From Eledone cirrhosa (taxonomy: Eukaryota): a stretch of DNA of 64,000 nt. Below, in pieces: positions 16,806 to 20,293 of this stretch. The number at the start of each line of letters is the position of its first letter. Position 1 is the stretch's first letter. The DNA is taken from contig OZ024741.1 of the NCBI GenBank assembly GCA_964016885.1, positions 98,084,001-98,148,000 on the forward strand, read 5' to 3'. A model generated the notes under the pieces. It saw only the letters and a list, made by a program, of their open reading frames with translations, searched no databases and had not been told where the DNA came from. Both the position numbers and the translations under genes were made by a program.

Positions 16806-17260
16806 TATGGTTTTATAAATATGGTTTTATAAATAATGTTTCCATTTAATATCATTGAATATTATACTCCAGAATATCTGTCGAGTGCTCTGAATCAGTT
16901 ACAAACATTTAGATTTGTTGAATTACCAACAAATTGAATATCCCTTCTGCTTATATATATATATATATATATATATATATATACATAAACGGAAAAAATG
17001 AAACGAAATTTCATTTCCCTCTCTTAGTACGGCTGTTACTTAAATATAAGTATGTACACGTACATACATATATGTATACAGACGTACAGTAGTATGTATA
17101 TATATATATAAATACATGCACACATATATATATATATGTACGTATGATGGATTCACTGAACATTTATTATAATGCTCGGTGTGTTTGTAAACAAACATCC
17201 CGTATTAAGCCGTAGTGTCTAGCAACCATCGTTGCTCGTTTGTTCAACACTGACAAAGGA

Positions 17261-17303
17261 ACGCTGTACTAGTTTCAAGCTTATTAGCTATCGTCAGCAA
17301 TGT
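17261..17303 (-). ncRNA. Hammerhead motif, retrozyme unit 1 (diverged)
   Basis: acattg-CTGACGA-tagc taataa gctt-GAAA-ctag-TA^cagcgt on the minus strand. Confidence 0.8.
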
Positions 17304-17479
17304 ATACCTTCCTGCCAGATTGTTGAACGTATATACTTACCTTATGCATATTAACGGCTGAGTAGCCCAATTTGCATATCGAGTGGGTTAATCGGCCGGG
17401 TGCACCGAAAACGATAAACGGAAAAAATGAAACGAAATTTCATTTCCCACTCTTACTACGGCTGTTACTTAAATATAAG

Positions 17480-17710
17480 GTGGTCAACTGGATTGGTCCC
17501 ACCCGCGACAATAGTCGTTCTACATAGCCCCACAGGTCGGTAACGCCCGGGAAGTGTACAAATGCGTGTGCGACGGTTTCCTCGTCGCGCACGCATCTCT
17601 GACAGATTTTTTCGAAGGGTTCTTACTCGGGCACCCGTGTTCGTAGAGATTATCTCGAACTGGTAGAGCTCCTCGGTAGCACTGCCAGGCCAGGGACTTT
17701 TGGAAGTTGA
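17480..17710 (-). mobile_element. Internal fragment of a Tx1-like ORF2
   Basis: Encodes NFQKSLAWQCYRGALPVRD...ETVAHAF...DLWGYVERLLSRVG, homologous to ORF2 at 32278-35697. Confidence 0.85.
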
Positions 17711-17721
17711 ATATATAGATA

Positions 17722-18330
17722 TGTTTCTTTTATTTGCCACCAGGGCATCAAAAGTGGGACAAGTACAATGGGGGGAGTTTACAAAACAAGGCGTCCTCAA
17801 TAAGGAGGAGGTAATAACAATATATAAAAATAAAATAAAATATAACAAAAAATAAAATTTATAACAAAGTCCTCAATAGAGAGGAGGTGCCTTGGGGGGT
17901 CGCACACACCCCCGAAAAAAGTGTGCAACCCTTCTCCTCAGGAGCACAGAGAAGGGGTGCTCCCTTGGTCTTTCATCTTCCTCACCTATAGTCTGATGTA
18001 GAGTGAAGGCCCATTCACACGGGCCATTCTCGCCACTTTCACCCATCTTTCATAGAAACGCCTTCTTCCGAAATGATATCGGAAGAAACGGACCAGTTGT
18101 TGGCCAGAGAGAAAGGTGTCTGACCTCAGTCCTTTCAGACGCGTCCACCATACAACCTCATTCGCCATGGCTATTACGCACAGAAACACCGCCTCTCCTT
18201 CGTTTTTGAAGAGGGGAGGCGGCTTGATCGTTACAATAGACTCGGTGGTCAACCGGATTGATCCCACCCTTGACAGCAGTTGTTCGACATAACCCCACAG
18301 ATCGGCAATGCCCGAGCAGTGTACCAATGC
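17722..18330 (-). mobile_element. 5'-truncated Tx1-like LINE (different subfamily) with 16-bp TSD
   Basis: ORF2 C-terminus ALVHCSGIADLWGYVEQLL...VNGPSLYIRL*, then a 3' UTR. TSD gttgaatatatagata at 17706-17721 and 18331-18346. Confidence 0.85.
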
Positions 18331-18638
18331 GTTGAATATATAGATAGATAGATAATTAGATAGATACATATCTATATATGTATATGTAAGTATGTATGTA
18401 TACGTACATACATATATGTATACAGACGTACAGTAGCATGCATATATATATATATATATATATATACATATATATATATATATACATACAGGTACACATA
18501 CATATATGCATGCATCAGTTTAGCGGACGCTTATTATAACGCCGCTTTGTTCGTTTGTAAACAAACTGAACAGCCTGAATTTATGCCATACGGTGTTAAG
18601 GCAACCACGTCATCTTTTTGTTCAACACTGACACAGGA

Positions 18639-18681
18639 ACGATGTACTAGTTTCAAGCTTTTTAGCTATCTTCAGCACCGT
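18639..18681 (-). ncRNA. Hammerhead motif, retrozyme unit 2
   Basis: acggtg-CTGAAGA-tagc taaaaa gctt-GAAA-ctag-TA^catcgt on the minus strand. Confidence 0.85.
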
Positions 18682-19200
18682 ATACCCATCTGCCAGATAG
18701 TTGAACGTTCGAAAGTATATACTTTCCTTATGAAAATTAACGGCTGAGCAGCCTAATTTGCATATTGAGTGAGTTAAATAGGTCAGGCATACCGAAAACG
18801 ATAAGTTGAAATAAAATGAAAACGAAATTTCATTTCTCACTCTTAGTATGGCACTTACTTAAATGTAACTATGTATGTATACGTACATACATATATGTAT
18901 ACAGACGTACAGTAGCATGCATATATATATATATATATATATATATATATATATATATATATATATATATATATATATATATATATATATATATATATAT
19001 ATATATATATATATATATATATATATACACATATATATATATATACATACAGGTACACATACATATATGCACGCATCAGTTTAGCGGACGCTTATTATAA
19101 CGATTTAACTTACTCAATATGCAAATTAGGCTGCTCAGCCGTTAATTTTCATAAGGAAAGTATATACTTTCGAACGTTCAACTATCTGGCAGATGGGTAT

Positions 19201-19243
19201 ACGGTGCTGAAGATAGCTAACAAGCTTGAAACTAGTACATCGT
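19201..19243 (+). ncRNA. Hammerhead motif, retrozyme unit 3
   Basis: acggtg-CTGAAGA-tagc taacaa gctt-GAAA-ctag-TA^catcgt. Stem I has 6 bp including one G:U. Confidence 0.85.
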
Positions 19244-19649
19244 TCCTGTGTCAGTGTTGAACAAAAAGGTGACGTGGTTGCCTTAACACCGTATGGCATA
19301 AATTCAGGCTGTTCAGTTTGTTTACAAGCGAACAAAGCGGCGTTATAATAAGCGTCCGCTAAACTGATGCGTGCATATATGTATGTGTACCTGTATGTAT
19401 ATATATATATGCATGCTACTGTACGTCTGTATACATATATGTATGTACGTATACATACATAGTTACATTTAAGTAAGTGCCATACTAAGAGTGAGAAATG
19501 AAATTTCGTTTTCATTTTATTTCAACTTATCGTTTTCGGTATGCCTGACCGATTTAACTCACTCAATATGCAAATTAGGCTGCTCAGCCGTTAATTTTCA
19601 TAAGGAAAGTACATACTTTCGAACGTTCAACTATCTGGCAGATGGGTAT

Positions 19650-19692
19650 ACGGTGCTGAAGATAGCTAACAAGCTTGAAACTAGTACATCGT
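19650..19692 (+). ncRNA. Hammerhead motif, retrozyme unit 4
   Basis: Identical to unit 3. Confidence 0.85.
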
Positions 19693-20293
19693 TCCTGTGT
19701 CAGTGTTGAACAAAAAGATGACGTGGTTGCCTTAACACCGTGTGGCATAAATTCAGTTTGTTTACAAACGAACAAAGCGGCGTTTTAATAAGCGTCCGCT
19801 AAACTGATGCGTGCATATATGTATGTGTACCTGTATGTGTATATATATATATATATATATATATATATATATATATATATATATATATATATATATATAT
19901 ATATATATATACATATATATATATATATATATATATATATATATATATATGCATGCTACTGTACGTCTGTATACATATATGTATGTACGTATACATACAT
20001 ACTTACATTTAAGTAAGTGCCATACTAAGAGTGAGAAATGAAATTTCGTTTTCATTTTATTTCAACTTATATATGTAGATATATATATATATATATATGG
20101 GGGGACATGTGTGTGTGTGCGCGCGTGCCTGTGCGTGTAAGTAGAGAACGTACATTAAGGAACATCTGAAATGGAAAATGTGTTAATTTACTATCATCTA
20201 GTTATGTATACATTAATATGAAAAAAAAAACCGTAGCAGCCTATTAGATATTTTGCAAATTAGTATAACAACTGGCAGAAATCCCGCTCGCAC

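Follow-up and report, generated by a model that had tools for sequence, protein, structure and literature searches.

The window analyzed here, a 64,000-nt stretch of Eledone cirrhosa DNA, contains two separate retrozyme insertions between positions 16985 and 20070, with LINE fragments between them. The initial annotation had described this region as a single tandem array (16987..20070), which the mapping instead splits into a subfamily-B copy, the LINE fragments and a young, two-armed insertion of subfamily A (18381..20070) with head-to-head arms and both 3' ends in TA-rich DNA. By segment mapping, the inverted arm of the A insertion (18381..19102, minus strand) comprises ~1.3 units, is 5'-truncated at unit position ~104 and has its 3' end, without a tail, at the short site at unit position ~231-234. 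The direct arm (19101..20070, plus strand) comprises ~2 units, is 5'-truncated at unit position ~313 and has its 3' end at the long site at unit position 293. Self-comparison and segment mapping agree that the arms meet at 19101/19102 with a 2-nt overlap and that orientation flips there, in line with the flip previously placed at ~19101. The 59 nt between the two fixed 3' end sites form a tail (20012..20070, plus) that is found at the direct arm end only; the left end of the insertion (18381-18384) is ~59 nt shorter than its right end (20070). A complete monomer of 449 nt lies between two predicted cleavage sites (19238..19686, plus), and its predicted circle is highly self-paired. It includes an internal TA/TG-rich segment (19362..19468, plus) of variable length, predicted to form a long hairpin with the short 3' end site at its base.

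The separate, single-armed B copy (16985..17478, minus) comprises ~1.15 units with 78% identity to the A unit in self-comparison, and its 3' end, of the long type, lies at 16985 next to (TA)n. Both outer ends of the region had been noted to stop at the same unit position; because 16985 and 20070 belong to two different insertions, this match is a coincidence. Outside the retrozyme, sequence matches identify two L1/Tx1-type LINE fragments (ORF2/3' end; 17480..18331, minus), the second of which (17725-18331) lies between 16-bp direct repeats at 17707-17722 and 18332-18347. At 17478-17480, the 5' end of the B copy abuts the LINE ORF2 fragment, which lacks a 3' end and is on the same strand; this fusion represents either a template switch or a deletion.

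The window also holds further mobile elements. Beside (TA)n, another small inverted element occupies 16333-16626, 16818-16983 and 27380-27632. It has a type I hammerhead-like motif of its own, with cores at 16410 (minus), 16548 (plus) and 27544 (plus) and an AT-only palindromic stem III, and is possibly a further retrozyme family or the end of a Penelope-like element (PLE). It is interrupted by one copy of a dispersed ~190-bp SINE-like repeat (16616-16804, 2102-2272, 12057-12248 and 28062-28247), which we take to resemble octopus SINEs. A truncated PLE at 14748-16272 has CxxC and GIY-YIG-like frames, an inverted end and its own one-sided tail; a first look gave ~11,100 candidates for it in the genome, and most copies seen carry a hammerhead-like motif UUGAUAA, in which U3/A8 replace C3/G8, with an ACCGGU palindrome. 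At 7593-9381 lies a PLE fragment whose GIY-YIG-like ORF spans 7732-8376 and whose inverted ends, 276 bp long, both carry a hammerhead-like motif with a long stem II. A near-complete, frameshifted PLE with RT and GIY-YIG is present at 50348-55914; its 735-bp ends are in direct orientation and contain hammerhead motifs of the minimal type, and a related PLE end lies at 4371-5203. Two tandem L1/Tx1-type LINEs that are 96% identical and have (AAT)n tails span 31980-44000, the first with a 1,204-aa endonuclease-RT frame.

Four motifs of the form CUGANGA...GAAACUAGUA are present in the window at the places given by the initial annotation, while 100 shuffles of the window yielded 0 matches. Two cores are in the direct A arm (19207-19237 and 19656-19686, plus), one is in the inverted A arm (18645-18675, minus, predicted site 18645) and one is in the B copy (17267-17297, minus). 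The predicted GUA cleavage sites at 19237 and 19686 are indeed 449 nt apart. In the predicted structure, stem I pairs ACGGUG with CAUCGU, and these proximal 6 bp extend via bulges into two further helices. Stem III, with the palindrome ACUAGU, consists of one pair and the palindromic loop CUAG, and stem II of the hammerhead at 19207-19237 has a U.U at its base, 3 bp and a 6-nt loop. Folding of 19624..19712 (plus) gives a hammerhead with the extended, bulged stem I and an outer helix (z -3.25). The hammerhead of the B copy, originally described as diverged in N7, loop and stem I with its catalytic residues retained, has N7 = C, the loop UAAUAA and a U.G replacing G.U. All three are subfamily characters; one further change breaks a stem I pair.

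Judged from these features, the predicted ribozyme is a canonical metazoan hammerhead of type I whose stem I is extended. It had been proposed to be a minimal type I hammerhead with a dimer-type stem III; the stem III palindrome stands, but the minimal form does not. As described in the parts of PMC4209133 consulted, the minimal hammerhead of PLEs is without a helix III insert and has a helix II of 7-8 bp and a short helix I, and the canonical, dimer-active metazoan hammerhead is defined apart from it. In the retrozyme, the CUGANGA/GAAA/NUH core, a 6-bp helix I and a short palindromic helix III are present, helix II has 3 bp and helix I is extended. The G10.1-C11.1 pair at the base of helix II is absent, with U.U or C.A in 27/27 distinct rows.

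Across the alignment of these 27 rows, 93.3% of cells are paired, and the stem I pair -3/+3 is G.U in 17, A-U in 4 and U.G in 4; the covariation shuffle control takes the rows as unrelated and is, thus, supportive and not a probability. N7 is U, C or A across subfamilies, the remaining core bases are constant between subfamilies and the cleavage-site triplet is GUA or GUU, depending on the subfamily. A third subfamily, with a GUU site, has 1,290 genome matches, and its stem II base is C.A or U.U in 96/100 among the matches listed. The subfamily changes in N7, the -3/+3 pair and the site, therefore, all keep the predicted hammerhead fold. With U.U or C.A at the stem II base, where G-C is usual, weak activity is predicted. 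In Xenopus, according to the sections seen of 10.64898/2026.07.22.740005, just 1/9 predicted retrozyme dimers cleaved in vitro. The energy of the ACUAGU self-duplex is -4.8 kcal/mol, and the cofold optimum differed from the double hammerhead.

An Rfam search of the window gave zero matches at the gathering threshold, and over 16000-20600 the hammerhead families were absent even at E<=5; matches to miRNA families were rejected as low-complexity artefacts. A search for related hammerheads with a different start of stem II gave 203 matches. Nearly all of the 100 listed are point mutants of this retrozyme, and no partner PLE was found among them. Hammerhead-like cores with a different stem II and the same ACUAGU stem III were seen at L126, L128, G000:C2:174669306 and G000:C3:103734889, and may represent unrelated families.

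The retrozyme is abundant in the genome. The 32-nt hammerhead core has 23,741 exact matches in the 3.0-Gb genome (control, 0), and core pairs spaced 416-446 nt apart amount to 2,823 tandem pairs, which answers the call for a genome-wide check of copy number and tandem organization. The family consists of tandem repeats with a type I hammerhead per unit in at least two consecutive units, and is dispersed and multi-copy with signs of retrotransposition. The repeat unit, given as ~449 nt, has that length in the monomer described above, but 124 measured units span ~410 to 680 nt, mostly 420-520 nt, because the internal TA tract varies. Folding of the predicted circle gave z of -6.7, -11.2 and -8.9 for three units (30 shuffles each), and 6/120 consensus pairs, scattered over the unit, are changed on both sides. 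In three unit tetramers, the longest ATG ORF is 51-126 aa and not conserved, and three ORFs over the array have 0 Pfam matches; by these checks, the unit is non-coding. It also appears to be without LTR/PBS/PPT architecture. Satellite-like arrays are present as well (L076-L077, L148-L154); they hold 32-50 units and show higher-order lags of 4, 6 or 8 units.

To describe the insertions, we mapped 151 loci, 55 of them around the first 100 listed core matches and the rest from later pattern lists, after 20 duplicate or non-family loci had been dropped. Because loci were picked by intact-core patterns, short or decayed copies are under-sampled. The 5' ends are ragged, while 3' ends cluster at two sites, unit positions ~234 and ~293, which are 59 nt apart. 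The loci contain 93 head-to-head junctions, of which 36 have an unclassifiable or edge end. Among the 57 junctions with both ends classifiable, three of which come from a single local duplication (L067), 56 combine a long and a short end, one is long+long and none is short+short. Thus, the 59-nt tail is on exactly one arm in 56/57 insertions (binomial p 8e-16). In the 55-locus subset, 22/22 classifiable junctions are long+short, and 12 more are unclassified. Either arm may be the longer one. Single arms end at the long site in 33 cases, at the short site in 23, elsewhere in 18 and at a locus edge in three. The 16 nt past the end are TA-rich for 63/93 short ends and 64/107 long ends vs 10/55 other ends. 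No recurrent fixed-site LINE insertion into the retrozyme was found among the irregular ends of 21 loci or 40 free 5' ends.

These properties have published counterparts. In the sections available to us, a PLE protein acts on AT-rich DNA, where it cuts both strands and extends them, with reverse transcription beginning at two internal positions of the RNA that mark the limits of the tail (PMC11167929); genomic PLEs show an inverted copy, a one-sided tail and a (TA)n bias (10.1101/2021.04.23.441226, PMC3846280). The retrozyme insertions have two fixed internal 3' ends, a tail at one end, an inverted 5'-truncated copy and an AT-rich target. By analogy, the two-armed insertion pattern is the published Penelope-like footprint. 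The one-sided tails, together with haplotypes common to both arms (see below), lend support to the idea of the initial annotation that PLEs mobilize this non-LTR retrozyme, and we consider it very likely that the element is a non-LTR retrozyme copied in trans by a Penelope-like enzyme.

What RNA served as the template can be approached from alleles and ends. Forty-one rare alleles, from 22/61 insertions, are present in all copies of both arms. In L143, 4+5 units are near-identical, and young insertions of up to nine units are nearly uniform. Since rare alleles are common to both arms and young units are uniform, one homogeneous RNA species would have served both arms. If the template were a linear monomer after cleavage, RT started from position 293 would halt at the cleavage site. 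Among copies lacking the A at this site (30 of 1,783 matches inspected), 0/30 are truncated there, which argues against a linear monomer as template; at a control position 3 nt upstream (30 of 290 matches inspected), 3/30 have 5' ends. The idea that 5' ends accumulate at the cleavage site, as a trace of in vivo cutting, was accordingly rejected. In some 24,000 copies, the cleavage-site junction is intact. The sequence data are, thus, compatible with a circular template as well as with an uncleaved multimer of uniform sequence. The earlier suggestion of a circular template fits the run-through junctions and the haplotypes, but an uncleaved multimer fits equally.

The alternative that PLE-driven insertion starts from an uncleaved linear multimer of a homogeneous source array, with any circles as by-products, is one we take seriously while leaning against it. 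All end and haplotype data fit it equally. Moreover, in the portions consulted of PMC11167929, PLE proteins mainly use unprocessed RNA in vitro: for an anole PLE, uncleaved RNA is dominant and hammerhead mutants still insert, so that an uncleaved multimer would suit the retrozyme data just as well. The A insertion in the window has two alleles, a32 and c48, in register between its arms. These need a two-unit template, as a multimer would provide, or later conversion between arms, and one monomeric circle does not explain them. However, source arrays are mostly heterogeneous, yet the young multi-unit insertions L033, L143 and L051 are homogeneous across both arms. Further, rare alleles shared by a subset of copies are in register in 4 cases vs 5 out of register, and in-register sharing between arms was, thus, ruled out as an enriched pattern; in addition, stem I is formed across the junction, and covariation is seen in long-range pairs. 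A dimeric circle as general template was also rejected: in the three arrays with alternating XYXY units (L063, L079 and L080), the terminal units are out of phase, and we, therefore, read these arrays as products of stepwise local duplication.

The inverted arm might instead have arisen from self-priming on an antisense template, as proposed for PLEs in the parts seen of PMC3846280, or from L1-style twin priming by a LINE RT, with no need for two PLE starts. While junctions are head to head and LINEs are abundant at this locus, the retrozyme lacks a poly(A) or LINE-like 3' tail, the arms, which overlap in unit sequence, terminate at two fixed internal sites, and the longer arm may be either one. 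This origin is, hence, improbable.

Slightly less probable still is that the unit is the pseudo-LTR (pLTR) of a coding PLE that has been amplified both as solo ends and as tandem ends. The architecture matches that of PLEs, including the (TA)n-flanked family at 14748-16272, with which the retrozyme has no sequence in common, and retrozymes are reported to derive from pLTRs in the sections covered of 10.64898/2026.07.22.740005. By contrast, the unit closes on itself in all multi-unit arms. Of the 40 free 5' ends examined, none leads into PLE coding sequence that is shared or collinear, and PLE matches near 55 retrozyme loci are scattered in distance and orientation. Moreover, the few PLE families examined carry hammerheads unlike that of the retrozyme, and comparison of the unit with PLE ends from a few families revealed no similarity except for retrozyme copies inserted beside them. 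No RT plus GIY-YIG ORF joined to the repeat was found in the sampled loci. The possibility, already raised in the initial annotation, that the unit is simply such a pLTR is, therefore, unsupported in the loci sampled. Finally, a satellite spread at the DNA level with a chance or relic hammerhead would account for the heterogeneous arrays of 32-50 units with higher-order lags and for the local duplication in alternating arrays but is highly improbable, as unequal crossover does not produce dispersed copies whose 3' ends are fixed while their 5' ends are ragged, nor one-sided tails or covariation across subfamilies.

We also searched the unit for a promoter. The U1 and U2 genes (L221-L231, L246-L249) share two upstream motifs, a distal one at ~260 nt and a proximal one that ends at ~52 nt; an octamer was not found within 300 nt of U1 genes. 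With profiles built from 6-7 U1/U2 upstream types, the tentative best unit matches on the plus strand are at 19292..19310 for the proximal motif (weak, subfamily A only) and at 19552..19566 for the distal motif (weak). In subfamily A, the two matches are spaced 189 nt apart vs 191-204 nt in real genes, and 0/40 and 1/40 shuffles reached the score. In three other units the score is not significant (shuffles 10/40, 3/40 and 16/40), and antisense scores are similar to or above sense scores. For subfamily A, we regard this as faintly suggestive of an snRNA-type promoter, and as a lead only, which other units, including those of subfamily B, do not reproduce.

For a non-LTR retrozyme copied by a Penelope-like enzyme, we suggest the following model. 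Tandem retrozyme copies would be transcribed, and hammerheads paired through the 6-bp ACUAGU duplex would cut the transcript to unit length; the monomer would then be circularized. A Penelope-like RT/GIY-YIG protein would cut both strands within (TA)n, and each DNA end would prime a cDNA, with starts at unit position ~293 for one and ~234 for the other. Each RT would copy a variable distance, at times several rounds of the template, and head-to-head joining of the two cDNA ends would follow. Local duplication would later enlarge some arrays. In its fullest form, in which a pair of RTs goes repeatedly round one small circular RNA from two fixed starts, each strictly tied to one side of the cut, and the element's own snRNA-type promoter lets tandem copies regenerate the circle, the model is tentative, and we rate it at a little short of an even chance. 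If it holds, the DNA would record a retrozyme life cycle in full, and the in vitro assay already available for PLEs could be used to test it.

Newt satellite 2 has an snRNA-type promoter; in the retrozyme, the corresponding hint is weak, limited to subfamily A and not reproduced in B. Likened by its description in the sections consulted, newt satellite 2 also has a tandem unit and a dimer-dependent hammerhead with a palindromic stem III (PMC7229834). The metazoan non-LTR retrozymes of coral, Mytilus and axolotl (Rtz331/Rtz353), as far as covered in PMC7229834, likewise consist of non-coding units in tandem, each with one type I hammerhead, and share low GC, a self-paired predicted circle, high copy number and the presence of PLEs in the genome (PMC7229834, 10.64898/2026.07.22.740005). 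Among axolotl hammerheads in the same account, HHR_Amex1 also has a stem III of one pair and a palindromic tetraloop and HHR_Amex2 a U.U at the base of stem II (PMC7229834). With a range of 150-450 bp in the accounts seen, known retrozymes are as long as or shorter than the unit described here, and, as far as these accounts go, they differ from it in its internal TA hairpin of variable length and its GUA/GUU sites. The sections covered describe neither inverted two-arm insertions nor fixed tail ends, and RNA circles are demonstrated for known metazoan retrozymes, whereas for this family they are predicted. In the literature searched, we found no description of a cephalopod retrozyme family or of two-armed retrozyme insertions, although supplements may list cephalopod examples. 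On its predicted features, the retrozyme belongs to the known non-LTR retrozymes as a new family.

Endonuclease-bearing PLEs, in the parts consulted of PMC11167929, 10.1101/2021.04.23.441226 and PMC3846280, share with the retrozyme partial tandems, an inverted 5'-truncated copy, a tail at one end, two internal RT start sites, AT-rich or (TA)n targets and a hammerhead in the repeat. Unlike the PLEs in these accounts, the retrozyme is without an ORF, has a tail of 59 nt vs 30-40 nt and many full units per arm, and its hammerhead is canonical as opposed to minimal (PMC4209133). In the portion of the literature consulted, mobilization of retrozymes by PLEs has so far been argued from co-occurrence, shared hammerheads and pLTR similarity. 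Here, the insertion footprint itself is countable in a non-coding element, as a tail on one arm in nearly all classifiable insertions and one haplotype for both arms. Because the element class and each architectural feature have already been published separately, the gain is mechanistic support and not a new system. Altogether, the family offers two exact start sites and a 450-nt substrate with which to test two-strand integration and circle copying by PLEs.
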